Of a stretch of 38,814 nucleotides of DNA, positions 12,482 through 32,094 are shown piece after piece. The translations under genes and the position numbers were made by a program. The notes beneath the pieces were generated by a model. It did not search any database and had not been told where the DNA came from. It saw only the letters and a program-made list of their open reading frames with translations. Numbering within the stretch: the stretch's first letter is position 1; every line of letters begins with the position of its first letter. Where the stretch lies: positions 1-38,814 of the IMG/VR virus record IMGVR_UViG_3300031344_000003. One strand, written 5' to 3'. The stretch comes from a virus. Its lineage: Duplodnaviria > Heunggongvirae > Uroviricota > Caudoviricetes.

Positions 12482-12850
12482 ATGAGGGTCAGTTACCGCG
12501 CACTGAAGAAGATCATCCGTGAAGTGGCGCTGTCGCCCTCCGTCTTCAAGAACAACCACGTGGTGCAGGATCCCATGGATCGGCCCAACATCGCGCAGGC
12601 ACTGACGGCGTTGGAGCAGCCCTTCAAGACTGGGTTGGAGACCAACCTCGTCCTCGATGCCCGTGACAGCTACGACGAGGAGACGCGGGAGCTCGACGAT
12701 GCCGAATACGCGAGGATCAAGGACGTGGCGGCGAAGGCGACTGAGTTGATGCTGGCTCGCGCCCACAAGGCGGTGCAGGCGTCGTGGGCCGAGGCGATGA
12801 AGGGCGTGGGCAGCGCCGACAAAGCAACCGTACAGAAGAAGGTGGCGTGA
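12482..12850 (+). CDS. hypothetical protein with shared N-terminal leader (putative virion protein)
   Basis: MRVSYRALKKIIRE. Confidence 0.75.
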   Translation: MRVSYRALKKIIREVALSPSVFKNNHVVQDPMDRPNIAQALTALEQPFKTGLETNLVLDARDSYDEETRELDDAEYARIKDVAAKATELMLARAHKAVQASWAEAMKGVGSADKATVQKKVA

Positions 12851-13101
12851 TGGCAAAGGTAATCAAGCTAACGCAGGAGCAGCTCAGGAATCTCATCAAG
12901 GAAGGGATTAGTACCGGCGAAGTGCGTGCAATGACCCATCACCTACAAGACATTAAACGCTCTCTTGGGCGGATGGGTGCTATTCAACAAGGCATTGGAT
13001 ATGGCAATACGACATCCGAGATCTCCAGTGCACTCGATGCGCTTAAAAGTGCCATCGATGAAGTCGACGAAGTGCTCATTCAGGCACTCGGAGGTAAGTG
13101 A
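12850..13101 (+). CDS. hypothetical protein with shared N-terminal leader
   Basis: TGATG coupling; MAKVIKLTQEQLRNLIKE. Confidence 0.75.
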   Translation: MAKVIKLTQEQLRNLIKEGISTGEVRAMTHHLQDIKRSLGRMGAIQQGIGYGNTTSEISSALDALKSAIDEVDEVLIQALGGK

Positions 13102-13445
13102 TGGTAAAGTTGTCAGTGAAACAACTGCGGAATCTCATTCGTGAAGCCGGTGAAGGTCTGAAGACCCCTTCTCGGCACATGAGGTGGGGCACATGGATGG
13201 TTGCATGGGGCGTAGCGCTAGCCGATGCAGGTGTCAACCAAGAGGATCTGCCGATCTTCGACGTCGTTGATGAGGACATGGGACAACTTGCTCTGGAGAA
13301 GATGTGGGGCGACTTCTTCGATAAGGGCAAGTCACCTGAAGAAGCCGTAGCACTGGCGATGGATCGTGATGCGTTCGCTGCTGACTATTACGATCCCTAC
13401 ATCGACGAATTCACTAGTGAACTTGAACACGCTGGGAGGCTGTGA
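13101..13445 (+). CDS. hypothetical protein with shared N-terminal leader
   Basis: TGATG coupling; MVKLSVKQLRNLIRE. Confidence 0.75.
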   Translation: MVKLSVKQLRNLIREAGEGLKTPSRHMRWGTWMVAWGVALADAGVNQEDLPIFDVVDEDMGQLALEKMWGDFFDKGKSPEEAVALAMDRDAFAADYYDPYIDEFTSELEHAGRL

Positions 13446-13449
13446 TCCA

Positions 13450-13743
13450 TTGAAATCCACGGTGGGCCAGCTGCGCCGCATCCTCTTTGAAGAGGCACCT
13501 CCGCGCGTGCTGCACGAGGCCTACCTCAACGGCGTGCCCGAGTGGCAGCTCCGCCAAGATACCACCGACTACGTTGACCAGATCCGCGTCCGCATCAAGC
13601 AGTTCATCCTGCTGAACAAGAGCCAGAGCTCGTCAGACCAGCGTGAGGCCATCAACGCCATGAACGACGTCTGTGATGAACTCGAGATGAAACTCTATGA
13701 CCAACTGGAAAATAGTCTCTTCGACTTCACGCGGCGAGTTTGA
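13450..13743 (+). CDS. hypothetical protein with shared N-terminal leader (TTG start)
   Basis: GGGAGG SD; MKSTVGQLRRILFEE. Confidence 0.65.
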   Translation: MKSTVGQLRRILFEEAPPRVLHEAYLNGVPEWQLRQDTTDYVDQIRVRIKQFILLNKSQSSSDQREAINAMNDVCDELEMKLYDQLENSLFDFTRRV

Positions 13744-13783
13744 GGTACGTTCATAATCGTCAGTGAACAGCCTAGTTATCAGT

Positions 13784-13996
13784 ATGACCCTCCTAATGCT
13801 GTTCGCCGCCGTCCTCATCTTTGCACTTTTCATTTGGATTGCCAGCATCGTGCCGGTGCCTGCAAAGATGCCCTGGCTCCGTACCATCTTCTACATTTTC
13901 ATCGCGCTGGTCGCGATCGTCCTTTTGGCGCAGTTCGCCGGCTGCACTGACCTGGGCCTCAACCACAGCATCGGCGTCGGCCACCGCGCCAACTAA
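13784..13996 (+). CDS. small two-TM membrane protein
   Basis: Two hydrophobic stretches; CCTAGTTA motif 5 nt upstream of ATG. Confidence 0.7.
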   Translation: MTLLMLFAAVLIFALFIWIASIVPVPAKMPWLRTIFYIFIALVAIVLLAQFAGCTDLGLNHSIGVGHRAN

Positions 13997-14001
13997 TTGC
14001 C

Positions 14002-14030
14002 TTGACCATCTCGCCCACCCGGTATAGGGT
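14002..14030 (+). promoter_or_regulatory. sigma70-like promoter, probably leaderless
   Basis: TTGACC-N17-TAGGGT-N6-ATG. Confidence 0.65.
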
Positions 14031-14036
14031 GTGGCG

Positions 14037-14360
14037 ATGGACCTTGAAGAGCACTACGTAGCCTGCGCCTGCAGTGACTTCAACCACGTCTTTCGCTTCG
14101 TCTTTGACCCCGACGACGGCGACCTGTGGTTGGAGGTGCAGTTGCGCCAGTGGCGACCCTGGTACAAGCGTGCGTGGATTGCACTGCGCTATGCCTTCGG
14201 TCTGCAACAGGCCTATGGCCACTATGACGTCACGGTGCTGAAATCAGCCGACTTCGCGCGGTTGCATGCGCTGCTCGATCGCGCCGAGGCCTTTGACCGT
14301 GCCCGCTCGGCCGCCGCGGCCCTTGGTTCACTGCAGAATAAACCCGTGTTGAAAGGATAG
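14037..14360 (+). CDS. hypothetical phage protein
   Basis: C.C....H..RF...WYKR.W.A..Y.FG pattern; promoter spacing. Confidence 0.7.
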   Translation: MDLEEHYVACACSDFNHVFRFVFDPDDGDLWLEVQLRQWRPWYKRAWIALRYAFGLQQAYGHYDVTVLKSADFARLHALLDRAEAFDRARSAAAALGSLQNKPVLKG

Positions 14361-14368
14361 GTTCTCCA

Positions 14369-15280
14369 ATGGCCTACAATGCAAAGGTGCTGTGTGATAG
14401 CCTGAGTCCTGATGGCGTGCGACTCATCACGATGGAGGTGACATTCGCGAGATGTGTCCTCGCTGAGATAAATACGCATAGGGCATTTTCCCGTAACAGC
14501 GCATCATCCCGTGCAATCCCGATTGCAAAGATGTTGCAAAGAGTACAGGATGATCCTTTCATCCCCATTTATTGGGGGCGCAATCAAAGCGGGATGCAGG
14601 CGAATGAAGAGTTGACACCTGAAGCACAAGCGCTAGCACTAGAACAGTGGTTGTTGGCTCGTGATAACGCTGTGAAAACGGTGGAACGTCTTCAGTCGCC
14701 CGACATCAACCTTCACAAACAGATCGCTAATCGGCTACTAGAACCCTTTCTTTATCATACTGCAATCATAAGTGCCACCGAGTGGGGCAATTTCTGGGGC
14801 TTGCGCTGTCACCCCGCCGCGCAGCCCGAGATCAGGAAGGCCGCCGACTTGATGCGCGCCGAGTACGATGCATCGGAACCCTTTCCCGTCAACTATGGCG
14901 ACTGGCACCTGCCGCTCGTGCGCCACGCCGAGGCCTTCGACCTGCAGGTCAACGGCATGTCGCTCGACGACGTCGTCAAGGTGTCTGCGGGTAGGTGTGC
15001 CCGGGTGTCGTACCTGACTCATGCTGGGATAAGAGATCCGAAGGCCGACATTGAACTGTGCGATAGGTTGGTGAGCTCGGGCCACATGAGTCCGCTCGAG
15101 CACGTCGCTAGGCCGATGACGCGTGAAGACGCTGAGCGGTTGGTATGCGCCAGTGTTGATTTACCCGCTCGTCACTACATCGACATCAAGCAGGTGTTCT
15201 GTGGCAATTACAGAGGGTGGGTACAAGCGCGCAAGGAACTGCAACACGAGGCCGACTTCTCTGCACGTCCGTCAGTTTGA
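14369..15280 (+). CDS. thyX: flavin-dependent thymidylate synthase-like protein
   Basis: THRAFSRNSASSR (variant of the RHRx7S motif), GRCARVSY, HMSPLEH. Confidence 0.75.
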   Translation: MAYNAKVLCDSLSPDGVRLITMEVTFARCVLAEINTHRAFSRNSASSRAIPIAKMLQRVQDDPFIPIYWGRNQSGMQANEELTPEAQALALEQWLLARDNAVKTVERLQSPDINLHKQIANRLLEPFLYHTAIISATEWGNFWGLRCHPAAQPEIRKAADLMRAEYDASEPFPVNYGDWHLPLVRHAEAFDLQVNGMSLDDVVKVSAGRCARVSYLTHAGIRDPKADIELCDRLVSSGHMSPLEHVARPMTREDAERLVCASVDLPARHYIDIKQVFCGNYRGWVQARKELQHEADFSARPSV

Positions 15281-15309
15281 TTATCGTTTTAGAGGGTCCT
15301 GAAATATAA
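15277..15309 (+). pseudogene. 10-codon remnant resembling a dTMP kinase N-terminus
   Basis: TTGA overlap with thyX stop; reads MIIVLEGPEI*; compare AFEGPD in the intact tmk 100 nt downstream. Confidence 0.45.
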
Positions 15310-15380
15310 TTTGTTAACATATGAACAACTTGCGCTAATGACAGACGTTACATGGAATAAAGGAGCAAAGGAATACATTG

Positions 15381-15992
15381 ATGAAAAATGCAATAACGCT
15401 GGCATTTGAAGGGCCCGATCGGCACGGAAAATCGACGCAGGCCAAGTTGCTGCACGAGGCATGCCTTGCCGCTGGGTACAAGGCCATCCTCGTCAAGGTA
15501 CCCACCGATTCCTGCACTCGGACGCACCGCTTGATCTACGCCATGTTGGCCAACGGTTGGGCACGCAAGGTGCCACACCTGTTTCAACTGGTGCACTTTC
15601 TCAACAAGTTGCTGTTTCAATTGCTGTACTTGCCCATCATGTTGAAGTGGTGTGACATCGTCATCCTCGATCGTTGGGCGCTGTCGGCGACGGTGTACGG
15701 TACCGTCGACGGTGCCAATCGCTGGTTCTCACGCGCGCTGTTCTCCCTGTTGAAGAAGCCCGACATCACTGTTGTTTTTCACGGTGCGCCTTTCAAGCGG
15801 GCGTCGGTCGACGATTCCTACGAGAAGGACGGCGGCTTTCAACAGCGCGTCGCGCAGGGGTACGTTGACTGGGCGATGGAACACCCGTTTGATCACACGT
15901 TGATCAACAATCAGTTCAAGGATGTCAATGGCATTCACAGCGACATCATCACTCGACTCCTTCAACGCGGCTTGATACGTGGTGTGAAGTGA
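15381..15992 (+). CDS. tmk: thymidylate (dNMP) kinase
   Basis: FEGPDRHGKSTQ P-loop, ILDRW..S..VYG, PDITV; AAGGA SD. Confidence 0.88.
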   Translation: MKNAITLAFEGPDRHGKSTQAKLLHEACLAAGYKAILVKVPTDSCTRTHRLIYAMLANGWARKVPHLFQLVHFLNKLLFQLLYLPIMLKWCDIVILDRWALSATVYGTVDGANRWFSRALFSLLKKPDITVVFHGAPFKRASVDDSYEKDGGFQQRVAQGYVDWAMEHPFDHTLINNQFKDVNGIHSDIITRLLQRGLIRGVK

Positions 15993-16597
15993 TCTTCGAT
16001 TGTCTCGTCGCCGACCCGCCTTGGGCCTTTGACGACAAGTTGGCGCGGATGAAGTCGCCCACTCGCCGCGGCGCCGCATCGCAGTACTCGACGTTGTCGC
16101 TGGCCGACATTGCAGCACTGAAGGTGCAGGACCTGATCAATCCTGCCGGTTGTGTGCTGGCGCTGTGGGTGCCGTCAACGCTGCTGCTCGACGGGCTCCG
16201 GGTGATGCAGGCTTGGGGGTTCTCTCCCAAGAGCACCGTCATCTGGGTCAAGACGTCAAAGAAGGCGCAGCCCATCGACGTGGCGACGGGTGACGGCCTG
16301 GCCTTCGGCATGGGGCGGACGTTCAGGCAATCGCACGAGCTGGCGCTGATCGGCACCGCGGGTAAGAGCGTCTATCCGACGATGCAGGATCACTCGCAGC
16401 GGTCGGTCATCTTTGCGCCCAACATGGGCCATAGCCAGAAGCCCGATGAGCTGCAACTGCGCCTCGAGAAAATGTGGCCTGACGCTCAGAGGTTGGAACT
16501 GTTCGCCCGGCGCTCGCTGCTCAATTGGACGTGCGTGGGCGATGGAATTGACGGCCTCGACATTCGCGACGCTATACAAAAGCTCACAGCGCTGTAA
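15989..16597 (+). CDS. MT-A70-family adenine methyltransferase
   Basis: ADPPW, YSTL, LALWV, WVKT, HSQKP, LELFARR. Confidence 0.88.
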   Translation: MIFDCLVADPPWAFDDKLARMKSPTRRGAASQYSTLSLADIAALKVQDLINPAGCVLALWVPSTLLLDGLRVMQAWGFSPKSTVIWVKTSKKAQPIDVATGDGLAFGMGRTFRQSHELALIGTAGKSVYPTMQDHSQRSVIFAPNMGHSQKPDELQLRLEKMWPDAQRLELFARRSLLNWTCVGDGIDGLDIRDAIQKLTAL

Positions 16598-16606
16598 GAT
16601 CTGCAC

Positions 16607-16915
16607 ATGAAACGAGATTACTCAAAGCGCACGAGCACGATGTACGATGATCGTGACGGCGACACCTTGACGACGTTGAGCGCGCCTCTCATCAAGACGT
16701 GTGACAGCGAGAAGCCCATCATGACGTTCTTCTTGATGCCGGTGTCGGGGACGGTGCCGACGTCACAGCATGGACAACCCGCGATTGGTTTTGAAATCAT
16801 CGGTTACGTGAGACTGGACGCATTATCGAGGGACCTGCAGGCCGCCGTCCGCAAAGAGCTACATACCCGCCCACCAACCGCGCCATTGGGCACGCGCACA
16901 GGAGATGCAGGATGA
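16607..16915 (+). CDS. hypothetical protein
   Basis: TAAGAT (overlapping upstream TAA) 6 nt before ATG. Confidence 0.6.
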   Translation: MKRDYSKRTSTMYDDRDGDTLTTLSAPLIKTCDSEKPIMTFFLMPVSGTVPTSQHGQPAIGFEIIGYVRLDALSRDLQAAVRKELHTRPPTAPLGTRTGDAG

Positions 16916-17418
16916 CATGTGTAGTCAGTGCTGTTGATGGTGATAAAGTCGTGATGATGGGTGATCATTCCTATATGCAGACGGATCATCATACCATGAA
17001 TGGTTGCAAAAAGGTCTTAAAGTCGGGTGAATTCATATGTGGTTTTGCAGGGTTTATTGACCCTGCAATGGCAACACTTAATGCCATTGAAAAAACACCG
17101 CTAATTGGGAAAACGCTTGACGAGCGCCGGAATGAATTACTTGCTAGATTTAATAAAGTTCAACCTGTACGTGCCAATAACACCTATCTAGTGGGACACA
17201 AAGGTAAGCTCTACACCGTTCTACCTAACACTGTGTTAGAGTCGAATGTTGGTTTCATTGGATCAGACGTAAATCTGTACGCAATCGTGTATAAATACGC
17301 CATCGCGAGGGGCGACAGCGTGAAAGTTGCGCTGGCATCAACAATCGTGTTTGCCGCAGATTATCTGCCTAGATATGTAGTTCTCGATCATGAAGGACCA
17401 ACGATTGAAGAAGTTTGA
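16912..17418 (+). CDS. HslV/proteasome-like Ntn-hydrolase
   Basis: M-T-C-V start (Thr2), VVMMGD, KKV..SGEFICGFAG pattern. Confidence 0.5.
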   Translation: MTCVVSAVDGDKVVMMGDHSYMQTDHHTMNGCKKVLKSGEFICGFAGFIDPAMATLNAIEKTPLIGKTLDERRNELLARFNKVQPVRANNTYLVGHKGKLYTVLPNTVLESNVGFIGSDVNLYAIVYKYAIARGDSVKVALASTIVFAADYLPRYVVLDHEGPTIEEV

Positions 17419-18205
17419 CGGCGTTCGCTTCTATGGCTACAAGCACTGGACGCTTGAGGCAGTGCCGCGTTGTTTCAACGTGGGCAAGGGTGTTATAGGT
17501 CGTTCTGACGTTGACCGTGGGCGTAATCACAAGTGGCACGCCATGGTCAAACGCCTTGGTCTCCGTGTTGAGGTCTGCATCGGCCCGGTGACCAATGAAG
17601 AGGCATGTGCTTGGGAGATTGAGTGGATTGCTAAGGAGAACACTTTCTCAACCAACCACTCACATGATGATCCCAATGACATCGGATGCAATTTCACGAA
17701 GGGTGGTGGGGGCGTTGTAGGACGTCCTCAAACAGATGAAGAACGTCGTAAACGGCGCGCAAGTTTGAAAGTTACATATGAATCGCCTGAACTTCGTCAA
17801 GGGCAAAGTGCATTGCAGAAGGATCACTGGTCAGACGATGAACGTAAGCAAGCGCATGTTCGTGGTATTAAGGCTCAAGCGAACACCCCTGAAACGTTGG
17901 CGAAGAAAAGAGCGGCTACAACGAAGAGTTGGGAAAATGAAGAGACGCGGCAAAAGCATGAGGCGGGCAATGCTCGACGTTGGAGCGATCCTGCTGAACG
18001 AGAACGTCATGGTAAGGCAATACAATTGGCTGCTCAGGCTCCCGGCGCTAGAGAACGACGTGTACAAGCCGCGCGTGAAATCAATAGTCGTCCTGAGGTC
18101 AAACGCATAAAGAGCGCAAAGATGACAGCAATATGGGTTATACGCAAAGTCAAGGCGTTTAGAGAAAAATCACACACGTGGCTTACACATCAACGCAAGG
18201 TGTAG
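17390..18205 (+). CDS. free-standing GIY-YIG-like homing endonuclease (start could be TTG 17405)
   Basis: FYGYKH...FNVGKG...R, EEACAWEIEWI, NFTKGGGG, NUMOD-like T.E.R.K tail. Confidence 0.72.
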   Translation: MKDQRLKKFDGVRFYGYKHWTLEAVPRCFNVGKGVIGRSDVDRGRNHKWHAMVKRLGLRVEVCIGPVTNEEACAWEIEWIAKENTFSTNHSHDDPNDIGCNFTKGGGGVVGRPQTDEERRKRRASLKVTYESPELRQGQSALQKDHWSDDERKQAHVRGIKAQANTPETLAKKRAATTKSWENEETRQKHEAGNARRWSDPAERERHGKAIQLAAQAPGARERRVQAAREINSRPEVKRIKSAKMTAIWVIRKVKAFREKSHTWLTHQRKV

Positions 18206-18217
18206 TAGAGATAGAAT

Positions 18218-18487
18218 ATGGAAAATGAGTTCAAGTTCGCAGACGAAGTGTTTCACCGCCTCGTGCAGATCGTTCAGGAGGCGCTACTGTCCGGCGTCGA
18301 CTGCGCCGATCTCCTCCGCCAGATCCGCGTCACCGTGGGTGATGCGGGTGACTTGGTGCTGACATCAGCGTATCAACAGCAGGTCAAGGAGATGCACGAC
18401 AAGATGTTGGAACACGCTCGCGAGCTGCAATCTGTGCAGGCGGGCAACAAGTTCATCGTGCCGGGTGGCAACGACGGTAACAACTGA
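18218..18487 (+). CDS. hypothetical protein
   Basis: Core-like codon usage; fills the gap. Confidence 0.7.
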   Translation: MENEFKFADEVFHRLVQIVQEALLSGVDCADLLRQIRVTVGDAGDLVLTSAYQQQVKEMHDKMLEHARELQSVQAGNKFIVPGGNDGNN

Positions 18488-18488
18488 C

Positions 18489-18863
18489 ATGAGCGCCCCC
18501 ATCGACATGCGTGTCCTCTGGGAGCAACAGTTGGCCTTCATGCGCCTGCTGCAGGAGAAGCGCAACTGGCCTCAATTCCCAGTTGACATCTCGACGAAGC
18601 AGGGGCAGACGCTGTTGCACGACATCCGCCATCACATCATGGATGAATTGTTCGAGGCGGGTCAGCACCTGAAGAACGCCAAGGCCCACCGGGCGACTGA
18701 GGTGCCTGAAGTCGACCGTGAAGCCTACAAGGAAGAACTTGTCGACGCCCTCCACCTGTACTTCGAGCTTGTCATTGCCAGCGGCATCTCGATTGAAGAG
18801 TTGGCTGACGCCTACATGAAAAAAGGTGAAGTCAATGTTGAACGTATCATGCGCGGATATTAG
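18489..18863 (+). CDS. all-alpha NTP pyrophosphatase (dimeric dUTPase/MazG-like)
   Basis: DELFEA...K.H...YKEELVDALH acidic EExxD motifs. Confidence 0.75.
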   Translation: MSAPIDMRVLWEQQLAFMRLLQEKRNWPQFPVDISTKQGQTLLHDIRHHIMDELFEAGQHLKNAKAHRATEVPEVDREAYKEELVDALHLYFELVIASGISIEELADAYMKKGEVNVERIMRGY

Positions 18864-18879
18864 GTGACGCCAACTGAAG

Positions 18880-18909
18880 GTGAACTTGTGACCGCACCGG
18901 TGTTACCAT
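18880..18909 (+). promoter_or_regulatory. sigma70-like promoter, probably leaderless
   Basis: GTGAAC-N18-TACCAT (TGn extended)-N6-ATG. Confidence 0.6.
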
Positions 18910-18915
18910 TGAGGA

Positions 18916-19350
18916 ATGGCACCGAGCAAAGGTTCTTTCAACTACGACTGGTTGGGCGACATGGCTGAGTCGTTCAACAACATGTTTTCACAGTCTAAGA
19001 TGTCAACGACGGTGACGGAGACGACTGAAGAGGACAACACGCCGGGCACCTATCGCAATGGTCCTGGCTACCACACCACGAAAGACGCGACGGGCATGAC
19101 GTTGGTCATTGACCTGCCCGGTGTCGATCCCACGGGACTCGAGGTGTGGGCCGAAGGTGAGAGCGTCATCGTCGTCAGTGGCAAGAAAGTCGGCGGCAAG
19201 AACGCCTCTTTCACCGCACGTTATCGGCTCGACATCGGTTATAGTACGTTCGCAGCGACGGCGGAAGCGAAGTTAGGCCAACTCCACATCCGTGTTTTCA
19301 CGGCATCTCCTTTTGTTACCGTGAAGCCAATTCCCATCGACATCAAGTGA
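18916..19350 (+). CDS. small heat-shock protein (Hsp20/alpha-crystallin-like)
   Basis: LVIDLPGV...LEV....VIVVSGK...F..RY.L...AEAKLGQL.I. Confidence 0.7.
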   Translation: MAPSKGSFNYDWLGDMAESFNNMFSQSKMSTTVTETTEEDNTPGTYRNGPGYHTTKDATGMTLVIDLPGVDPTGLEVWAEGESVIVVSGKKVGGKNASFTARYRLDIGYSTFAATAEAKLGQLHIRVFTASPFVTVKPIPIDIK

Positions 19351-19961
19351 TGCAGCCCTTCATCGTCGACCCGGCGACCTACGACAAGCGGCAGGCCTTC
19401 GACGCTGCGTTGGTCTACGTCAAGGCCTTCCTCGACCTCAACGGCATCGCACCCGTCACCGAGTACCTGACGGAGCCCGATGACGCCAAGAAGCCACCTG
19501 GGAAGAACCCGTGGCACGATCGCGGTTGGTACTGGTTCGGCACCGTCTTCGTCAACCTAAAGAAGACGCGGACGCCCGTCAAGGTGCCCGGCTTTCAATG
19601 GTCTTATACGGGTTACAAGGCCGACCTCACCACACCCGGAGTGCTGGCCCACGAGGTCGGTCACCACGTGCACTTTGAGCTCGACCGCGTGCGTGGCGAA
19701 CACGTGCTGGGCAAAGTGCGTGCAGTTTACGCGATTGAACCACCAGTGTCTGGCTATGAACCCAACCCGTACGAGGTCTTCGCTGAGTCGATGCGACTGT
19801 TCATCCTCAACCCGATGTTGCTAGCCGAGGGTCGCCCTGAGCGGTACAGCATGTTGATCAAGCTGAACCTGCAACCACTACACCATGCACCGTGGCGCGA
19901 GGTGTTGGTAAACGCTCATCCGAAGATCATCGCGGCGGCCGAGAGGTGGATTGAACGATGA
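19350..19961 (+). CDS. zincin-like metallopeptidase
   Basis: LAHEVGHHVH (HExxH) plus downstream EVFAE. Confidence 0.65.
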   Translation: MQPFIVDPATYDKRQAFDAALVYVKAFLDLNGIAPVTEYLTEPDDAKKPPGKNPWHDRGWYWFGTVFVNLKKTRTPVKVPGFQWSYTGYKADLTTPGVLAHEVGHHVHFELDRVRGEHVLGKVRAVYAIEPPVSGYEPNPYEVFAESMRLFILNPMLLAEGRPERYSMLIKLNLQPLHHAPWREVLVNAHPKIIAAAERWIER

Positions 19962-20977: not shown

Positions 20978-21002
20978 ACACGGCCCCACACCGGTGTACT
21001 GT
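20974..21002 (+). promoter_or_regulatory. sigma70-like promoter
   Basis: TTAAAC-N17-TACTGT-N8-ATG; -35 contains the upstream TAA stop. Confidence 0.55.
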
Positions 21003-21010
21003 GTGATCAG

Positions 21011-21502: not shown

Positions 21503-21524
21503 CGCACACGAACGCAGTGACAAC

Positions 21525-21818: not shown

Positions 21819-21822
21819 CTAG

Positions 21823-22603: not shown

Positions 22604-22628
22604 ACAACATCGCCGCGTGGTGTACGAT
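22600..22628 (+). promoter_or_regulatory. sigma70-like promoter, probably leaderless
   Basis: CTGAAC-N17-TACGAT-N6-ATG; -35 contains the upstream TGA stop. Confidence 0.72.
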
Positions 22629-22634
22629 TGTAAC

Positions 22635-23447: not shown

Positions 23448-23731
23448 ACTTCAAGATCGTCATGGGGGAGACCGCTCTCGGCATTGAGCACAAGTTCGTT
23501 GGGCCCGGCCTTTCACAGTACGCGAACGGGGTTCACTTTCTTCAGGTCCCAAACGCCTGGGCGCTCAAGTGCATGGAGGGAGACGAGGTACTCTCGTGCG
23601 AAGAGAAGATTGATCACAGCTTTGGTAAGCGCCAAGCTGAGACAGTCATACAGTTACTCGAACAGGCGTTTGAAGCCGGGAAGACCGAAGCCAAACGGGA
23701 ACTGCGCGCCATGTTGGGCATTCACCAGTGA
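23444..23731 (+). CDS. hypothetical protein
   Basis: ATGA coupling. Confidence 0.6.
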   Translation: MNFKIVMGETALGIEHKFVGPGLSQYANGVHFLQVPNAWALKCMEGDEVLSCEEKIDHSFGKRQAETVIQLLEQAFEAGKTEAKRELRAMLGIHQ

Positions 23732-24618: not shown

Positions 24619-24898
24619 ACCCGTACGCGAGGATCCCGCCACGTTGCAGCGGCAGATTGCGTACTACACTCACGTACAGCGCTGTGCGTCAATTCGCCGT
24701 GAACGTGCCGAGGAGCTGATGCAGCGTCCCGTCGCCAAGTCTTGGGACGCGGCCAAGAAGGCCAAGATGGTGCGCAAGTTGATGGCGTCGAAGCAGGAGT
24801 TCGATCAGTCGGTCAGCGCGCTCGACCAGCTCAACTTCAGGTTGCAGCAGGTCACCAACGGGCAGGGCACTTCGGGACCTGTCACCAACACGCCATGA
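24572..24898 (+). CDS. hypothetical helical protein
   Basis: TAGAGT 6 nt before ATG; coupled to next gene by ATGA. Confidence 0.6.
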   Translation: MDTKQPLIGQTPTSTEPVREDPATLQRQIAYYTHVQRCASIRRERAEELMQRPVAKSWDAAKKAKMVRKLMASKQEFDQSVSALDQLNFRLQQVTNGQGTSGPVTNTP

Positions 24899-25671
24899 AT
24901 ACCATTCACCAAGCCACTGCGTTGTCGGTGCTGAAGGCGACGCCTGACAACAGCGTCGATCTTGTGTACTCCGATCCGCCTTTTGGCACCGGCGTTGTGC
25001 AGTCGTCTCACGGTATGGCATACAACGACGTCACACTGGAGTACGGCGCCTTCTTGAGCCAGCACCTCGTTGAATTTCACCGCGTCCTGAAACCCACGGG
25101 TACCCTGTACCTGCACCTCGACTGGCGACACGTGCACATCGCTCGTCTCGACTGCGATCAGATCTTCGGTACAGACAACTTTCTCAACGAGATTATCTGG
25201 AGCTACAATTTTGGGGGCCGTGGCAAGACGACATGGGCACGTAAGCATGATAACATTCTCGTCTATGCCAAGCACGCTGGTCAGCACGTCTTCAACTACG
25301 ATGACATTGACCGCGTGCCCTACAAAGCTCCCGACATGCAGCGAGTGGGCAGGACACCTGAAGACGCTGAGGCTCGCATCGCACGTGGGCAGGTGCCGAC
25401 CGACGTTTGGGAGATGAGCATCATCGGGACGAACGCCAAGGAACGCACGGGGTATCCCACACAAAAGCCCCTAAAGCTCGTCGAACGCATCATCACCGCC
25501 AGCTCGCCACCCGGGGGTCTGGTCATGGACGTCTTCGCGGGTTCTGGCACCACAGGCGAAGCCGCACACAAGCACGGCCGTTCGTTCGTCCTTGCCGACA
25601 CCAACCCACAGGCGATTGAAGTGATGCAGCGACGATTGAAGGACGTGCCCACTGATTGGAGATTACCGTGA
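24895..25671 (+). CDS. DNA N6-adenine/N4-cytosine methyltransferase (beta class)
   Basis: VDLVYSDPPFG, NEIIW.Y, GYPTQKP..L..RII, MDVFAGSGTT. Confidence 0.92.
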   Translation: MNTIHQATALSVLKATPDNSVDLVYSDPPFGTGVVQSSHGMAYNDVTLEYGAFLSQHLVEFHRVLKPTGTLYLHLDWRHVHIARLDCDQIFGTDNFLNEIIWSYNFGGRGKTTWARKHDNILVYAKHAGQHVFNYDDIDRVPYKAPDMQRVGRTPEDAEARIARGQVPTDVWEMSIIGTNAKERTGYPTQKPLKLVERIITASSPPGGLVMDVFAGSGTTGEAAHKHGRSFVLADTNPQAIEVMQRRLKDVPTDWRLP

Positions 25672-26612
25672 CCGACGTCGTGAACTTCAATGAAGTCAAG
25701 CTGAACAAGCCCCTGTTGACGATGCTGCACGAAGGCCAGCTCTTCAACCGTGGCACGTTGGAACTGCTTGGGCTCGTCTTCGAGCACGGTGGCTACATCG
25801 CTGGCGGTTTTGCGGCGTTGGTCGCCCGCCACGTGGTCATGTGCACACCAGCGGCAGACTTTTACCGTGATGTCGTCAATCACACGGGAGGCCCGATCAA
25901 GGTCGCTGGGTGGTCGCATGCGTTTCGTCGCCACGGTGACATCGACGTCTTCTTCTCGTCACAGCAACAACTCGACGGCTTTCTCAACGATCCACGTCGG
26001 TCGATCGTCGACTTGAACGTCACGCCGACGGTGACGGGCGCTGGGTTGGATCACATCGTCGATGGAGATGTCAAGGTGCAGGTCATCACCCGGTGGGCGA
26101 GGCCGATGAAGGAGCACATGACCAGCTTTGACATCTACAACTCCATGGCGGGCGTGACGAATGAAGTGTTGGTGATGGCGGAGCAGTGGGAAGCGCTCGA
26201 GCGAGCCATGATGCTGCACGTGACGACGTGGGCCGGGCCGTGGACAGTCGGCCGTGTCTTCAAGTATGTCAACACTAAGGGCTACAGTACACTGACACCG
26301 TTGACTGCGGCTTACCTACACAGTGAGGTGTGCAAGACGCTGGAGCAGGTCAAGTCGGTGCGCTTTGAGATCGAACACGCTCGCATGGTGACTCGCAAGG
26401 CTCCTCCCGCTCACCTCCACCTCGAATTGCAGCGTAACACACTGTTGAGGTACATGGTCGGGTGTAGAGAGGGTAGGAAGCAGTGGGTGTTGAAGCCCCT
26501 GCTGGCCAGTTTCACTGCAGAGCAATTGCTGACGTTGTCGGCGCTGTGTGGGACGGAACCCGCGTACGACTACGCCATGAAGGAAATTCACAGGCGCATG
26601 CCCGTCGGGTGA
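25668..26612 (+). CDS. nucleotidyltransferase-fold protein (CCA-adding/poly(A) polymerase head-like)
   Basis: YIAGG...GDIDVFF...VQVI...SFDI; GTGA coupling. Confidence 0.55.
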   Translation: MTDVVNFNEVKLNKPLLTMLHEGQLFNRGTLELLGLVFEHGGYIAGGFAALVARHVVMCTPAADFYRDVVNHTGGPIKVAGWSHAFRRHGDIDVFFSSQQQLDGFLNDPRRSIVDLNVTPTVTGAGLDHIVDGDVKVQVITRWARPMKEHMTSFDIYNSMAGVTNEVLVMAEQWEALERAMMLHVTTWAGPWTVGRVFKYVNTKGYSTLTPLTAAYLHSEVCKTLEQVKSVRFEIEHARMVTRKAPPAHLHLELQRNTLLRYMVGCREGRKQWVLKPLLASFTAEQLLTLSALCGTEPAYDYAMKEIHRRMPVG

Positions 26613-26657
26613 GGTGTGATGCATAAGATGCATCAGCACTGCCTAGTTATCGCTGAC

Positions 26658-27608
26658 ATGTACCTCGCGCCCAAGCGGCTTCGACCCGGAGCCCGCGTTG
26701 CCATCATCGCCCCTGCTTCACCCTTTCGCCCTGAAGAGCTGGTGGTGGGCCTCGACGTCGTCCGCGAGTGTGGCCTTGAGCCCGTGCTGGGCCCCAACGT
26801 CAGGTCACTGCGGACGGTTGACATCCACGCCGCACCGCTGGTCGACCGCGCTGAAGAACTGATGTGGGCCTTCACCGACCCGACGATCAGCGGTGTCATC
26901 TGTGCGTTGGGTGGCTACGGCAGCGCCGAGACGTTGCCCTACCTCGACTTTGACAAGATCAGGGCCTCAAGGCGCCCGCTGCTAGGCCTGAGCGACATCT
27001 CGGCCCTCAACAATGGCCTGTTGACGGGCGCGGGCCTCATCAGCATCAATGGCCAGTACCCGGCGATCAGGCTCGACAAGGGTGAGCGCATCAAGAAGCT
27101 CGACTGTGAGTCGCTGAAGTTTGGCTTGGAATTGATGATGAGCGACCAGCCGTGGGACGTACGTCCCTTTGCAGTCAACCAGTTCCTGCCCCGGACGGTG
27201 TCGCCCGGGCGGGCCAGCGGCCACGTCATCGGCATGAACTTGGAGACGTTCTGTTGCTTGCTGGGCACCCCCTTCTTTCCCGACGCCCAGGATGCTATTC
27301 TGTTCATTGAGGACGTGCGCAAGGACGGCGAAAAAGTGGCCCGCATGTTTAGCCAACTGCGCCTCGCTGGCGTCCTTGACAAGGTGGCTGGCATCGTCGT
27401 CGGTGAGTTTGCCGAGGTGCCGACGAAGTTGGAACCCGACGTGCCGTCGATCGAGGACGTCATCCTGCAGTACCTGTCGAACGGGCCCCCGTGTATGTAT
27501 GGGGCATCCTTCTCTCACGGCGATTGGACAATTCCCGTCCCGGTGGGAGCACAGTGTACGATGGATGCAGATACGGGTGAAGTGTCCTTTGACTTCTCGA
27601 TGGCCTGA
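26658..27608 (+). CDS. S66 peptidase (LD-carboxypeptidase/MccF family)
   Basis: LRPG.RVAIIAPAS, GGYG, LGLSDISAL (Ser), LFIEDV (Glu), FSHG (His), PVG; CCTAGTTATCGCT upstream. Confidence 0.9.
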   Translation: MYLAPKRLRPGARVAIIAPASPFRPEELVVGLDVVRECGLEPVLGPNVRSLRTVDIHAAPLVDRAEELMWAFTDPTISGVICALGGYGSAETLPYLDFDKIRASRRPLLGLSDISALNNGLLTGAGLISINGQYPAIRLDKGERIKKLDCESLKFGLELMMSDQPWDVRPFAVNQFLPRTVSPGRASGHVIGMNLETFCCLLGTPFFPDAQDAILFIEDVRKDGEKVARMFSQLRLAGVLDKVAGIVVGEFAEVPTKLEPDVPSIEDVILQYLSNGPPCMYGASFSHGDWTIPVPVGAQCTMDADTGEVSFDFSMA

Positions 27609-27633
27609 ACACCCCCGCGTTCCGCATTAGGAT
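27605..27633 (+). promoter_or_regulatory. sigma70-like promoter
   Basis: CTGAAC-N17-TAGGAT; -35 contains the S66 stop codon. Confidence 0.6.
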
Positions 27634-27734
27634 TGGACTGTGATCTTGTCAGTCGAATTTTTGAGTGTGGTGCCGTGGGCTGTGCAAGCGTGTGCGGTGT
27701 AAGTATAGGATGAACTCTGACGAAGGATGATCCC

Positions 27735-28292
27735 GTGAAGCGCGCCCTGCTCCTCAATGCCGATTACACACCCCTCCATTTCATCAGCGATTGGCGTGCC
27801 ATTCGCCTGGTGATGCTCTCTCGCGCCGAGATCGTCATTGACTTTCAGACGGGTCTGCCGTCGGTGTGGGATGACGAGGCCTTCACTTCGCCCGGATTGA
27901 TGCCCACTGATCCACTGCGATCGGTCGCCATCCCGGCGACGTTGCGGATGTACCGCAAGATCCACAAGAAGTGGAAGCCACCGCGTTTTCGCAGCCAAGT
28001 GTTGTTCAACCGTGATGATTGGACGTGCCAGTATTGCGGCACCAAGTTGTCGTGGAAGACGGTCGAGATCGAGCACGTGGTGCCGTTGTCACGTGGTGGG
28101 CCGACGACGTGGCTCAACTGCGTGTCTGCGTGCAGGGACTGCAACAAGCGCAAGGGCAACAGGACGCCCGACGAAGTGGGCATGAAGCTGTTGAAGAAGC
28201 CCGCCAGTCCGACGGCACTGCACTTCTGGGACGCCGCCAAGACCGATTGTTACCACCCGTCGTGGGATACATTCCTCCCGAAGGAACGCTGA
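27735..28292 (+). CDS. HNH endonuclease
   Basis: LLLNADY.PL, RD.WTCQYCG, EHVVPLSRGG..TW.N.V.AC..CN..KG; AAGGA SD. Confidence 0.9.
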   Translation: MKRALLLNADYTPLHFISDWRAIRLVMLSRAEIVIDFQTGLPSVWDDEAFTSPGLMPTDPLRSVAIPATLRMYRKIHKKWKPPRFRSQVLFNRDDWTCQYCGTKLSWKTVEIEHVVPLSRGGPTTWLNCVSACRDCNKRKGNRTPDEVGMKLLKKPASPTALHFWDAAKTDCYHPSWDTFLPKER

Positions 28293-28305
28293 CCGACGCG
28301 TCGCT

Positions 28306-28325
28306 GATACTTATCGCTCAGGAGC
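28306..28325 (+). promoter_or_regulatory. TACTTA-class promoter plus SD; exact repeat of 12456..12475
   Basis: GATACTTATCGCTCAGGAGC. Confidence 0.7.
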
Positions 28326-28333
28326 CTGTGCGC

Positions 28334-29515
28334 ATGCGATTGAACCTGACTGAGTTGCAGCGAGTCGTGGAGCGAACAATTGACGAAGAGAGGGCCGTTG
28401 ATGCCCTGAAGGGTGAAATCCGCCGCGTCTTGGGCCCGGTCGTCATCACTGAGGGTCGGCTAGAACACGTCGTGGCCGAGGCCAATGATCGCCTCGACGT
28501 CCTGCACCGCACGGGCCGCGACGGGCAACTTGACTTTCTCTCCAACATCACCACGACCTTCATCGACCACAAGCACCCCGAGGTTCGACGCTTTGCGGCG
28601 CGCATCATCCCGGAACGTTTCTTGCCCAAGATGGTGACCGACAAGGACGCCGCCGTCCGCGCCGCCGTCGCCATGCGGGTGCCCATGCCCGCGGTTCGCG
28701 AGATGATGAAGCGCTTCAAGCACGACGACCAACTACGTGCCATCTATCGCCAACGCAAGCAGGCGCTGCACGAGGCGGGCATCAGCCCACCCAAGGCAGA
28801 ACCCCTGGGCCATGACCCTGTCGACGGTGCAGAGCGAATGGGCGACGTGGCCCGGACGGCCGAAGGCCCCGAATTGAGCGATGCATGGTACGACGAACAG
28901 GCCCGCCTCTTCATTCACGACTACGCTCGAGCCGAGGCCAATGATCAGCATGCCCGGTTGCTCGATCGGGGGTGGGCATCGCTCGTCGTCCGCCGCTTCT
29001 GTGCCAGCACCAAGGCGACGGCGCACGTTGAGATCGATGCAGAGAAGTTGCTGAAGCACGTCAACGACCTGATGGAAGAGAAGGACGATCGGACGCTGGA
29101 ACGCGACGCGATGAAGGAGACCCTGGCGTGGTTGGGTGCGCAGGACATCAATGAGTCGGCACTGCCTGAATTCCACGAGATCATCGATCCCGTCCGTGCA
29201 CTGCTGGAGGCCAACCTGTCGCAGGAACAGTACGTCGCCGAGGCGCTGAAGCTGTTCAACGTCAAGCGGTCGGAGCTGCCCAAGGGCATCCGCAAGTACT
29301 GCCTGGGTGAGGCCAACCTGCGGGTGACGTTGGTGCCGTGCCTGGGTAGCCTGCCGCACCAGCACGGTTTCCGCGCCGTCGACGAGCGTGCCCTCGACAA
29401 GTTCTGTGAGTCGTGGAACGACGGCCAAGCGCTGGTCGGCGAGCCCTTCGTCCTCAACTGGGGACCTCACCAGGGCGATGCATCGAAGGTCAACTTTACC
29501 GTCACCCTGAAGTAA
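28334..29515 (+). CDS. hypothetical protein with leader motif and LRV/HEAT-like repeats
   Basis: MRLNLTELQRVVE; HPEVRRFAARII and DKDAAVRAAVA repeats. Confidence 0.75.
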   Translation: MRLNLTELQRVVERTIDEERAVDALKGEIRRVLGPVVITEGRLEHVVAEANDRLDVLHRTGRDGQLDFLSNITTTFIDHKHPEVRRFAARIIPERFLPKMVTDKDAAVRAAVAMRVPMPAVREMMKRFKHDDQLRAIYRQRKQALHEAGISPPKAEPLGHDPVDGAERMGDVARTAEGPELSDAWYDEQARLFIHDYARAEANDQHARLLDRGWASLVVRRFCASTKATAHVEIDAEKLLKHVNDLMEEKDDRTLERDAMKETLAWLGAQDINESALPEFHEIIDPVRALLEANLSQEQYVAEALKLFNVKRSELPKGIRKYCLGEANLRVTLVPCLGSLPHQHGFRAVDERALDKFCESWNDGQALVGEPFVLNWGPHQGDASKVNFTVTLK

Positions 29516-29524
29516 GATCTTGAG

Positions 29525-30007
29525 ATGCAGACGACGCTCGGCAAGCTGAAGTACGTGATCAGCGAGGTGCTTGAGGCCAACCAGGTGCTCAATCGCCTGC
29601 GTGCCGTTGCTGCTGGCAAGAAGCCCTACATGGTGGGCCAGTGGGCGACGGTGCCCCGAGATTATTCACAGCCCAGCGTGGGCGTCGCTAGTTGTTGGGT
29701 TGCCGAAGACCCCGAGTTGGGCAAGGTGTACCTGACGTTTAGCTCACACATCACCTACAAGAAGGTCAAGAACAGTCGCCTGCGCGATCCCGGCGGCACC
29801 CGCTATGCCTACACCGCGATCCTGTCGTCGCACCCGTGGGAGACGTTTGAGAACCACGGCAATGTGCCTGTCTTCAAGCTGGCGGCGACGGGTGAAGGCC
29901 GCGAGGACGACAAAGCACTGCAGGCGCGCAAGCAGATGGTGAAGCTGTTCGGCGTCGACCCGATGGCCCACAGGGGCCCACTTGAACCGACGGAGACACG
30001 AAGATGA
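29525..30007 (+). CDS. hypothetical protein with shared N-terminal leader
   Basis: MQTTLGKLKYVISE. Confidence 0.75.
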   Translation: MQTTLGKLKYVISEVLEANQVLNRLRAVAAGKKPYMVGQWATVPRDYSQPSVGVASCWVAEDPELGKVYLTFSSHITYKKVKNSRLRDPGGTRYAYTAILSSHPWETFENHGNVPVFKLAATGEGREDDKALQARKQMVKLFGVDPMAHRGPLEPTETRR

Positions 30008-30339
30008 AGACGACAATCAGCAAGCTGAAGCAGTTGATCAACGAGCACCTGTTGGTCGAGGTACCCGTTGGATCCGGCATGCGCAAGCCGCAGTTCGGCC
30101 TGTCGTCGGGAGGCGGTGGTCTCAGGCCCGCCAAGTTCGATCCTGCAGTGCACGATCTCAAGGACGTCATGTGGGCCGTCATGGACGAGTTTGCGGGCGT
30201 TGCCTCTGACCTCGGTGTCGACGACATCAAGGATCCCGCCTTCATCGGTTACATCGGCGATCAGTTGACTGATAAGGGTGTGCCCAACGACATCATCCTG
30301 CAGGTCAAGGCCAAGCTGCAACGCGGGCAGTCGCGTTAG
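30004..30339 (+). CDS. hypothetical protein with shared N-terminal leader
   Basis: MKTTISKLKQLINE; ATGA coupling. Confidence 0.75.
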   Translation: MKTTISKLKQLINEHLLVEVPVGSGMRKPQFGLSSGGGGLRPAKFDPAVHDLKDVMWAVMDEFAGVASDLGVDDIKDPAFIGYIGDQLTDKGVPNDIILQVKAKLQRGQSR

Positions 30340-30341
30340 GG

Positions 30342-30370
30342 TTGAACATCACGTGCAGTGTGTGTAAGAT
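30342..30370 (+). promoter_or_regulatory. sigma70-like promoter (leadered)
   Basis: TTGAAC-N17-TAAGAT, then GGGAGGG SD. Confidence 0.68.
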
Positions 30371-30393
30371 CATGAACGTGGGGAGGGCAGCAC

Positions 30394-30729
30394 ATGATCA
30401 ATGAATTGTCACAGGCGAGGTTGTCGCCCGAGAGTGATGCGTACAAGCGCGTCTATGACCTGCTCGAGGAACACACAGTCTCGTGGGTGACTGACGCGTG
30501 GAAGAAGAACCCCACGCTCGATGCCATTCAACAGCAACCGCTGTACAAAGTGACGCTTGAACAGGTGTTGAATGCGCCCAACGGGCGTAGTCTAAATCCA
30601 CAAAAAGTACGTGCTCACCTGGCGCTTCGTGATCAATTCGTGGTGTTGGCAGTCAATGGTGTTGAGGTTTGCGTGTTCGGTGAAGTTGCTGATCAGATCT
30701 TCAATGCGTTGGCCGAACATGCGACCTGA
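30394..30729 (+). CDS. hypothetical protein
   Basis: Promoter plus SD. Confidence 0.7.
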   Translation: MINELSQARLSPESDAYKRVYDLLEEHTVSWVTDAWKKNPTLDAIQQQPLYKVTLEQVLNAPNGRSLNPQKVRAHLALRDQFVVLAVNGVEVCVFGEVADQIFNALAEHAT

Positions 30730-30922
30730 TCTTGGTGACATTATTCGGTACAAGTTGGGAATGACAAAGGTGAACGGAGAGTGGGTCGAAGAGCTTAGTG
30801 ATGATTTTGGAACTGTTATTTCGGTTAGCGATAATGACATCGGAGTGTTTTGGAGCGTTACTCAACGCATTGAACATCACTCTCCGGGTGATCTAGTTGT
30901 AGTCGTTCGACGATCCAAGTGA
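30719..30922 (+). CDS. small SH3/KOW-like hypothetical protein
   Basis: MRPDLGDIIRY...FGTVISV...V.W. Confidence 0.55.
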   Translation: MRPDLGDIIRYKLGMTKVNGEWVEELSDDFGTVISVSDNDIGVFWSVTQRIEHHSPGDLVVVVRRSK

Positions 30923-30928
30923 AGTGCG

Positions 30929-31210
30929 TTAGTTGAAGCGATCGACGACGTTGCCGTCCCGGTCGACGACCAGCCCCGCCTTGTCGAGTGCCAGCCCGAT
31001 GGCGTGCTCGCTCGCACCCAGCCAGCTGACCAGCTCATCGAACGACACCTTGCCCGGTGTCACCCCCTTGGGATCCGTCTTGCGCTTGTTGCGCAGCGAG
31101 CTGACGTAGAGGTCTTCCCACGTCGTCCGCACTTCGTCGGGCGACGGCACCCGCTCGATGTCAATGCTCTCATGGATCAATGAGCGCAGGTGTTTGACTG
31201 TCGTCCGCAT
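30929..31210 (-). CDS. hypothetical protein with shared N-terminal leader
   Basis: MRTTVKHLRSLIHE; TGATG coupling on the minus strand. Confidence 0.75.
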   Translation of the reverse strand: MRTTVKHLRSLIHESIDIERVPSPDEVRTTWEDLYVSSLRNKRKTDPKGVTPGKVSFDELVSWLGASEHAIGLALDKAGLVVDRDGNVVDRFN

Positions 31211-32094
31211 CAGATCTCGCCGTGCTTCTTCATGTTCCACGCCACGGCATACGGGTTCTCGACGCCTTTCTGCTTCTTGAGGGCCTTGACGACCTTCTTG
31301 CCTCCGGGCGGCGCCACTTCGTCGACCTTCGACCGCTTGTGTTTGGGGTGAGAAGTGCCTGCGGGCATGTTCGACGTGAAGTCCTCGGCACCGTAGACGA
31401 TTGACGAACTCTCGTCCGTCAACTTGGCGTCCGCCTTCGGTCGCGCACAGTCTGGGCAGGTGCAGCCGGCGGCATGGCCCGGGTGGCGTGCGGGGCCGTC
31501 GCTTTCCTTGACGGCGCGCTTGGCGCGCTTGGGTTTTTCGCCTGAGCCACCGCACTTCGGGCACTTCTTGGTGTTTCCCGGCTTGTTTGATGGAGCGAAC
31601 CCACCACCGTTACACGTCGGACACACGTCTTCGTCGGGTTCGTACGTGGCAACGCCGTATTTGCCTTCGGCCATGTCGGGCGGCGTCCCCATCCGTCCGC
31701 ACTGGGTGCACGTCGACTCGTCCATGCCCATCAGGCCCCCGCACGATTCGCAGGTGGGCTTGTTGATGGGTCCGGGCGTCAGGTCTTCGGCGATCGCACC
31801 AGTCGCTCGCACATCTTCTTCGCGTACCTCGATGTCCCCCGCCGCGGTCGACACCTTGTACCAGAGCTGACTGCGTTGTTTCTTGCCCCCCGGCCGGCCG
31901 GGGCCGAACATGTGTGAGGTGACCTGACCAGCAACGCGTGCACCGTTGCGCTTGACCATGACGGGTGTTCCTGGTGCGAGGATCGCCCCTCCCCCGTGTG
32001 AGTCATAACTCTCCGTGATGGGTTCACCGAACCTCTCGAGCAGTGACTTCATGATCTTGGCAACGGCGTGTTCACTGAGGGGTTGGCGAGGCAT
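31210..32094 (-). CDS. multi-module protein (SH3-like, Zn ribbons, CxxCxGxG), putative virion protein
   Basis: CESC..CTQC, CPTCNGGG, CPKCGGSG, CTCPDC; C-terminal EVAPPGGKKVVKALK...NPYAVAW; TACTTA 5 nt upstream. Confidence 0.75.
   Translation of the reverse strand: MPRQPLSEHAVAKIMKSLLERFGEPITESYDSHGGGAILAPGTPVMVKRNGARVAGQVTSHMFGPGRPGGKKQRSQLWYKVSTAAGDIEVREEDVRATGAIAEDLTPGPINKPTCESCGGLMGMDESTCTQCGRMGTPPDMAEGKYGVATYEPDEDVCPTCNGGGFAPSNKPGNTKKCPKCGGSGEKPKRAKRAVKESDGPARHPGHAAGCTCPDCARPKADAKLTDESSSIVYGAEDFTSNMPAGTSHPKHKRSKVDEVAPPGGKKVVKALKKQKGVENPYAVAWNMKKHGEI

Follow-up and report, generated by a model that had tools for sequence, protein, structure and literature searches.

In bacteriophage T4 the internal proteins IPI, IPII and IPIII carry a short N-terminal capsid-targeting sequence (CTS), which the prohead protease gp21 cuts off (Mullaney & Black 1996; reviews PMC9026906, PMC3012670 and PMC12373910). 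This enzyme cleaves at L/I-X-E, on the C-terminal side of the Glu, and with Asp at the cleavage position processing is lost whereas targeting persists (PMC9026906). All three internal proteins inhibit type IV restriction enzymes, and at least 10 internal proteins, recognised by their signal sequence, have been reported among the T-even phages (PMC12373910). The giant phages phiKZ, 201phi2-1 and SPN3US have many head proteins that are presumably processed after Glu by a gp21-related protease; phiKZ/SPN3US-type sites read S/A/G-X-E, and most of the propeptides exceed 100 residues (PMC5694885, PMC9026906). Here we describe a 14-residue N-terminal leader shared by small proteins with unrelated bodies in a 38.8-kb stretch of viral DNA (IMG/VR record IMGVR_UViG_3300031344_000003; the whole stretch of 38,814 nt is called the window), and we put at roughly 0.7 the probability that it is this lineage's version of the T4 CTS, a propeptide which a protease would remove. 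The seven tagged proteins of the window would then probably be loaded into the capsid, as the T4 internal proteins are.

The window corresponds to bases 33,409–72,222 of a 215,857-bp IMG/VR virus contig, which is linear, has 57.5% G+C and is about 63% complete according to CheckV. It belongs to an uncultured, T4-related phage with genome assemblies of about 359 kb: over its first 13.6 kb the contig shows 99.985–100% identity to metagenome contigs in ENA (ERZ27245389 to ERZ27245409) that are 359,154 and 359,321 bp long, and the genome upstream of the contig start was read on these 359-kb assemblies via exact-protein look-ups. Neck and tail genes of the T4 type (gp13, gp15 and two sheath paralogues) stand at the start of the contig. 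A megablast search of INPHARED with 8 kb of the window did not find a close relative, and the sheath and protease are nearest to those of Microcystis phage Mel-JY01, an uncultured 484-kb phage and T4-like cyanophages.

The likeness to the T4 system covers several features. Here as in T4, a short N-terminal tag with an MK(T) start and a hydrophobic-x-Glu end is found on unrelated small proteins, a gp21-family protease is encoded by the same phage, prohead core proteins have similar N-termini, and the genes are scattered outside the head module and encode a lineage-specific and variable cargo. The two differ in length, the T4 CTS having 10 residues and the leader 14, that is one helical turn more. 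The fixed Leu-(Lys/Arg) at positions P7-P6 of the leader is absent from the T4 N-termini that we read (NC_000866: MKTYQEFIAE in IPII and IPIII, MAKINELLRE in gp24, MLKEQLIAE in gp22). They also differ in scale, with three internal proteins in T4 and at least 16 strong plus about nine weaker copies here on 60% of the genome; unlike in the T4 system, a DnaJ-WGR protein and a NUDIX hydrolase each stand behind one of the weaker leader-like N-termini. The phiKZ-type phages are comparable as giant phages with many such head proteins. A head propeptide of the phiKZ/SPN3US type was considered and rejected: P3 is Ile or Leu in 19 of 20 strong leaders, the tag has 14 residues, and the portal, capsid, neck and sheath are of the T4 type.

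An N-terminal leader shared by unrelated proteins

Ten N-termini of the window had been put forward in an earlier note as eight carriers and two looser variants of one leader, and all ten were found in the sequence where that note had placed them. Seven of the eight carriers fit the common model, while the eighth, at 28334, is marginal and the looser variants at 2139 and 32094 (minus strand) fall outside it when scored with a position-specific scoring matrix (PSSM). The strong members start at 12482, 12850, 13101, 13450, 29525, 30004 and 31210 (minus strand), with PSSM scores of 26.9–34.2 bits, and the consensus of the 14 residues is M-[KR]-[LT]-[TS]-h-x-x-L-[KR]-x-h-[IL]-x-E, where h is hydrophobic.

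The PSSM was built from 14 residues ending in Glu, the initiator position being ignored, and was run over 153,672 positions in all open frames of both strands of the contig. Such a scan of the genome, which the earlier note had proposed, returned 16 strong copies, every one N-terminal: 16 matches reached at least 16 bits (one scored 16.0 and the others at least 22.9), and all lie at the start codon of an open reading frame (ORF) or at most four residues from one. Nine of these strong copies, and about nine weaker ones, are located on the contig beyond the window. The reversed genome, used as a control, gave no match at or above 12 bits, and 325 kb of distant relatives gave one match of at least 16 bits. 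In a test independent of the seed sequences, the 7-mer L[RK]x[LIV][ILV]xE occurs 19 times in the open frames of the contig (six frames). A Met stands exactly seven residues upstream in 8 of these 19 occurrences, with about 0.3 expected at a Met frequency of 1.7%; in two others TTG or GTG takes this place as start codon, and a further four have a start 5–11 residues upstream. Since a greedy longest-ORF caller lost several small tagged genes to antisense ORFs, the statistics were run on all six frames.

A logo of 20 strong leaders shows Leu at P7, Lys or Arg at P6 and a hydrophobic residue at P4 in all 20, followed by Ile (16), Leu (3) or Cys (1) at P3 and Glu at P1. Residues 2–4 are mostly [KR]-[LT]-[TS], and at P1', directly after the Glu, Ala, Glu and Val predominate. 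The codons differ among the copies, with CTG, CTA, CTC, TTG and CTT used for Leu and GAA and GAG for Glu; as the codons vary at conserved residues, the constraint acts on the peptide. A signal peptide was ruled out, the leader being charged (net 0 to +5, mostly +1 to +5) and without a hydrophobic core.

The leader in the head module of the same phage

On the 359-kb assemblies, a Peptidase_S77 gene is found about 24 kb before base 1 of the contig. The genes that lead to it are, in order, the terminase, a 211-aa and a 101-aa protein, a T4-type portal, a 288-aa protein and the Peptidase_S77 protein itself (224 aa); they are followed by a 126-aa protein, a peptide deformylase, proteins of 153, 90 and 180 aa, a 698-aa scaffold-like protein and Gp23 (649 aa). 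With T4 gp21 the S77 protease shares 30% identity (E = 6e-23), the GELNHP and GVSSRGLGS stretches of the T4 enzyme aligning with GELDHP and GISSRGVGS.

Four small proteins of this head module carry the leader, with PSSM scores of 14.5–26.4. Two are encoded in the interval between terminase and portal, the 211-aa protein (leader ...IGLLRLRHLINE) and the 101-aa protein (leader VIRVSVERLRRLIKE), and two after the protease, the 153-aa protein (leader MALSRSELKSVIKE, then LLVE and ILSE) and the 90-aa protein (leader ...KLTPALLKRIIEE). The 153-aa protein thus has three I/L/V-x-E sites (IKE, LVE and LSE) spaced by four residues, a pattern that would be expected of a core protein cut into fragments. 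In T4, gp21 cuts the propeptides of gp22, gp67, gp68 and gp24 at L/I-X-E, and genes 67 and 68 lie between portal and protease; the tagged head-module genes have a comparable position beside portal and protease, and their products have no detectable sequence similarity to gp67 or gp68. A PHROGs search assigned no family to the small head-module proteins or to the scaffold-like protein.

We compared the head locus with 80 related S77 loci from IMG/VR, most of which share two recurrent small ORFs behind the protease. Their N-termini read M(A)KLSRxxLKxIVKE-CLVEIL and M..KLTPxxLRRIVLEE, and the matrix derived from the dispersed genes of the contig ranks these post-protease ORFs among its top matches in two distant relatives. 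A related ORF also follows the protease of Microcystis phage Mel-JY01, the nearest cultured relative, whose protease is 52% identical. A complex prediction for the S77 protease and the 111-aa tagged protein of the window (40-row alignment) gave a median score of 0.22 against a mark of 0.32 and counts neither way.

These data bear on the possibility that the leader is a docking or recognition helix for some other machine, for instance a degradation tag, an oligomerisation helix or the element recognised by a modifying enzyme. Short amphipathic N-terminal helices indeed have many uses, and among the alternatives this one survives best, although we consider it unlikely. The leader stands on four head-module proteins and on ORFs that follow the S77 protease in most of the 80 relatives, it ends exactly in the gp21 site I/L-x-E, and the tagged genes have the promoter-like motif of the structural genes (see below). 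As regards a radical-SAM/SPASM maturase as such a modifying enzyme, PF04055 was not matched on the 216-kb contig (the remaining 143 kb of the genome lay outside the search), the control being positive in 14 of 14 genomes.

The C-terminus of the S77 protease (L135:9323–9997) reads ...RVLNE-ILLRGVPTKDVR, and two of the three relatives that were first aligned likewise have an L/F-N-E site 4–13 residues from the C-terminal end. Auto-processing at the C-terminus, as described for T4 gp21 and SPN3US gp245, would agree with such a site. The peptide deformylase gene (L135:10381–10875) lies between the protease and the tagged core proteins, and in another genome (G003) a 160-aa ORF with a similar N-terminus occupies its position.

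Protein bodies with and without the leader

The bodies behind the leader had been called unrelated, and an all-against-all BLASTP of the protein bodies bears this out, the best E-value being 0.05. Their divergence could also be that of paralogues of one ancestral small gene in which the N-terminus alone is still recognisable, with no transferable tag. Many members are small, clustered and lineage-restricted, as such a history would have it, and the divergence of the bodies could exceed what BLASTP detects. We nevertheless hold it to be distinctly improbable, first of all since the leader-like N-terminus also precedes recognisable domains: a weak copy (PSSM 7.2) stands directly before a DnaJ J-domain (Pfam match from residue 18), which is followed by WGR, and another (PSSM 13.2) precedes a NUDIX hydrolase on the contig. 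Secondly, the body domain of the 111-aa protein, about 65 residues long, was found in 35 clusters of a 1.84-billion-protein library, of which about 10 have a leader-like start and at least 17 lack the leader. Thirdly, the bodies range from 83 to 393 aa in length and from 4.1 to 9.8 in isoelectric point. Common descent would in any case be compatible with a tag function, and the T4 internal proteins may have the same origin.

The 111-aa body domain (30004–30339, homologues P0123–P0157) has the motif DLGV(D/E)D...F.DY.GD.LSD.GVP, which weakly matches acyl-carrier (PP-binding) repeats with Asp in place of the modified Ser of the carriers. Some relatives carry it fused C-terminally to members of the zinc-ribbon family to which the product of window positions 31210–32094 belongs, and one leader-less homologue (P0145) is encoded on a 15.8-kb contig of unannotated small ORFs.

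At the syntenic locus of four relatives we found different tagged genes at different positions. This turnover recalls the internal-protein loci of the T-even phages, which are variable (PMC9026906, PMC12373910).

A promoter-like motif upstream of the tagged genes

The clusters had further been said to sit behind TAnTTA sites, which proved correct: a site is present 4–20 nt before the first gene of the three window clusters and before the 2139 gene, these sites preceding 12482, 28334, 32094 (minus strand) and 2139. The motif is under-represented on the contig (84–85 sites, about 186 being expected from base composition), and 13 of the 19 leader transcription units have it in the 60 nt before them, with a chance of 1.2% per unit and P of about 2e-21. 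TA[CG]TTA is also found before the genes of Gp23, the scaffold-like protein, gp13, both sheath proteins and a 2512-aa protein; in the window, no TAnTTA lies directly upstream of the start codon of any replication gene. The simplest reading is that TAnTTA would be a late promoter, analogous to that of T4 (consensus TATAAATA) and different from it.

In 9 of the 13 leader units with the motif, TAnTTA ends 4–8 nt before the ATG and a Shine-Dalgarno sequence is lacking (in the window, for example, at 2129, 32105 on the minus strand, 13773 and 26644). If transcription starts a few bases past the motif, as it does at T4 late promoters, such late mRNAs would have no 5' leader or almost none. The capsid gene, the scaffold gene and the two main window clusters have 18–23-nt leaders with GGAG. 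Two small predicted membrane proteins of the window, of 70 aa (13784–13996) and 146 aa (33608–34048), have TAGTTA or TACTTA directly before their genes, within the replication region.

A constraint on the mRNA 5' end or on the translation initiation of late, possibly leaderless transcripts, without any function of the peptide, is the least probable alternative and in our view a very improbable one: with the short spacing in the nine units, transcription may in some cases begin at the start codon or close to it, and Lys and Thr codons at positions 2–4 are common in highly expressed N-termini, but codons are free at the invariant Leu, Ile and Glu while the residues are 95–100% conserved up to codon 14, behind the motif the clusters at 12482 and 28334 have 5' leaders with an ordinary Shine-Dalgarno sequence, and orthologues at 58–64% identity retain the leader residues.

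Tagged and neighbouring genes in the window

Cluster 1 is preceded on the plus strand by a TACTTA promoter-like site (12458–12463), 18 nt before its first gene. This gene (12482–12850, plus strand) encodes a 122-aa candidate cargo whose leader residues 1–14 are MRVSYRALKKIIRE (PSSM 26.9). Only three other clusters of this protein exist among 5.8 billion proteins, and all retain the leader. Its AlphaFold2 (AF2) model, with a mean predicted local distance difference test score (pLDDT) of 69, consists of a helix (residues 5–16), a low-confidence linker (17–26) and a helical hairpin body. Three further candidate cargo genes follow on the same strand. The first, for an 83-aa protein (12850–13101; leader to Glu18, PSSM 33.8), starts in overlap with the preceding stop; the second, for a 114-aa acidic protein (13101–13445; leader to Glu15, PSSM 34.2), has a body charge of -14; the third, for a 97-aa protein (13450–13743; leader residues 1–14, PSSM 29.1), has a TTG start in place of ATG, 10 nt downstream of GGAGG.

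Cluster 2 lies 20 nt behind another plus-strand TACTTA site (28308–28313), and the 5' leader after this site, ATCGCTCAGGAGC, is identical to that of cluster 1. It opens with the marginal 393-aa gene (see Discussion), followed on the plus strand by the gene of a 160-aa basic candidate cargo (29525–30007) with leader residues 1–14 = MQTTLGKLKYVISE (PSSM 28.7). Just one other cluster of the 160-aa protein is found among the 5.8 billion proteins, with the leader retained; tblastn against phages gave no match, and the ESM Atlas no usable match. The adjoining gene (30004–30339, plus strand) encodes the 111-aa candidate cargo, in which leader residues 1–14, MKTTISKLKQLINE (PSSM 32.9), are followed by the domain of about 65 aa.

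On the minus strand, a 93-aa candidate cargo gene (30929–31210) has leader residues 1–14 = MRTTVKHLRSLIHE (PSSM 29.2), and its start overlaps the stop of the upstream gene. The latter (31210–32094, minus strand) is the first gene of this unit and encodes a 294-aa zinc-ribbon protein which the leader model, with a PSSM score of -11, does not place in the tagged set; a TACTTA site (32100–32105, minus strand) lies 5 nt before its ATG. Orthologue N-termini show a conserved h-L-h-E-RFGEPI near residue 20, and the protein has a weak Anti-TRAP / Q-like zinc motif and two weak PHROGs matches. Similarly, the 74-aa gene at 2139–2363 (plus strand), behind a TATTTA site at 2129–2134, has the N-terminus MSNSLLEKYIRLMVQE and a PSSM score of -8, and falls outside the same model; judging from the position of the motif, its promoter context appears to be of the late type. 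PHROGs assigned no family to the eight leader-bearing window proteins or the 2139 protein, and Pfam gave nothing above cut-off for the three tagged window proteins searched.

The window otherwise contains mainly replication and nucleotide-metabolism genes. The replication genes encode an HD-domain protein, a gp32-like protein, RecA/UvsX, a Vsr-type endonuclease, a flap endonuclease, DnaB and DnaE, the last being split by inteins in some relatives (L133, L134). Nucleotide metabolism is represented by the large subunit of ribonucleotide reductase, ThyX and thymidylate kinase, and the other genes encode MT-A70, two N6/N4 DNA methyltransferases, an LD-carboxypeptidase and a sugar epimerase.

Outside the window, the terminase of the head module (L135:1145–3985) is unusually long with 946 aa, and the T4-type portal (L135:5020–8463, 1147 aa) has Intein_splicing and HNH_3 matches, an indication of an intein. 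The interval from head module to neck module (contig 597–1466 and L128:2459–9997) contains a patatin-like phospholipase gene, the gene of the 2512-aa protein and a run of genes of similar length (237–271 aa). After them come the two tail-sheath paralogues, of about 1020 aa each and separated by a GIY-YIG homing endonuclease; some strains have the second sheath gene in two parts, of 700 aa and 313 aa.

Discussion

The in silico tests that could have spoken against a T4-type tag all came out in its favour. The packaging tag proposed in the earlier note is partly supported, namely by the S77 protease, Gp23, the tagged head-module proteins, the I/L-x-E end, the shared motif and a body domain that occurs with and without the leader; two of the ten members listed there fall off the model and are no longer counted. 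The rival explanations are each weakened by the head-module copies, the exact I/L-x-E end, the free codon variation and the leader-less homologues.

Several points weigh against this assignment. With the Pfam gp21 and gp23 families, no protease or capsid gene was matched in the window or on the 216-kb contig, because the contig is cut just downstream of the head genes, and the link to protease and capsid comes from other assemblies of the same phage. The capsid protein has L-A-A near residue 12, where its relatives have L-x-E. The leader resembles the T4 CTS loosely (14 residues against 10), the likeness consisting of the MK(T) start and the h-I/L-x-E end, and no alignment statistic is given because 10 residues are too few. 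The promoter role of TAnTTA is read from position only. A gp55 homologue was not found on the contig with a single-sequence T4 gp55 query, a null result that carries no information, given the divergence of the protein and the 40% of the genome outside the contig. Finally, in the 393-aa protein encoded at 28334–29515 (plus strand), Glu13 is not conserved in homologues, and the 'leader' opens a long, confident helix at residues 5–33 (AF2, pLDDT 86).

This 393-aa helical-repeat protein, with the N-terminus MRLNLxxLQxVV... and a PSSM score of -7.5, resembles the leader in its first 12 residues only and should be treated apart from the tagged set. It has an I-D-E at residues 17–19, kept in most of the homologue N-termini examined, and 116 homologue clusters in a huge-phage clade with contigs of up to 361 kb. 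Its AF2 model gave weak Foldseek matches to LRV/armadillo repeats (E of 0.03 or worse) and no functional lead. The protein also has a C-terminal alpha/beta domain, and TACTTA is present upstream of the gene in this phage and in all four relatives checked.

For the tagged proteins, we infer a scheme of late timing, core binding, cleavage, packaging and injection. The tagged genes would be transcribed late, from the TA[CGT]TTA promoter type common to head and tail genes. The leader would form an amphipathic basic helix, with Leu at P7, Lys or Arg at P6 and hydrophobic residues at P4 and P3, that binds the assembling prohead core and so would carry unrelated cargo proteins into the shell. The gp21-type Peptidase_S77 would then cut after the invariant Glu (P3 Ile/Leu, P1 Glu) and free the mature cargo, which would stay with the DNA and enter the host at infection.

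In a broader proposal, to which we give even odds, the leader marks an 'injected proteome' of 25–30 or more proteins in a clade of uncultured 310–360-kb T4-related phages, with one tag and free exchange between strains; it would include candidate host-takeover or anti-defence factors, possibly the DnaJ-WGR and NUDIX proteins. The principle is already known from T4 and its close relatives. What is new is the distinct 14-residue tag, the scale (on 60% of the genome at least 16 strong and about nine weaker copies, to which the head module adds four) and the use in a clade of 310–360-kb uncultured phages.

If the tag works as in T4, each of its carriers is a candidate for delivery into the host with the DNA, and therefore the 14-residue signature would list candidate injected effectors of an uncultured giant-phage clade from sequence and metagenomes alone. 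It would also provide a second, longer packaging tag for capsid-loading work.

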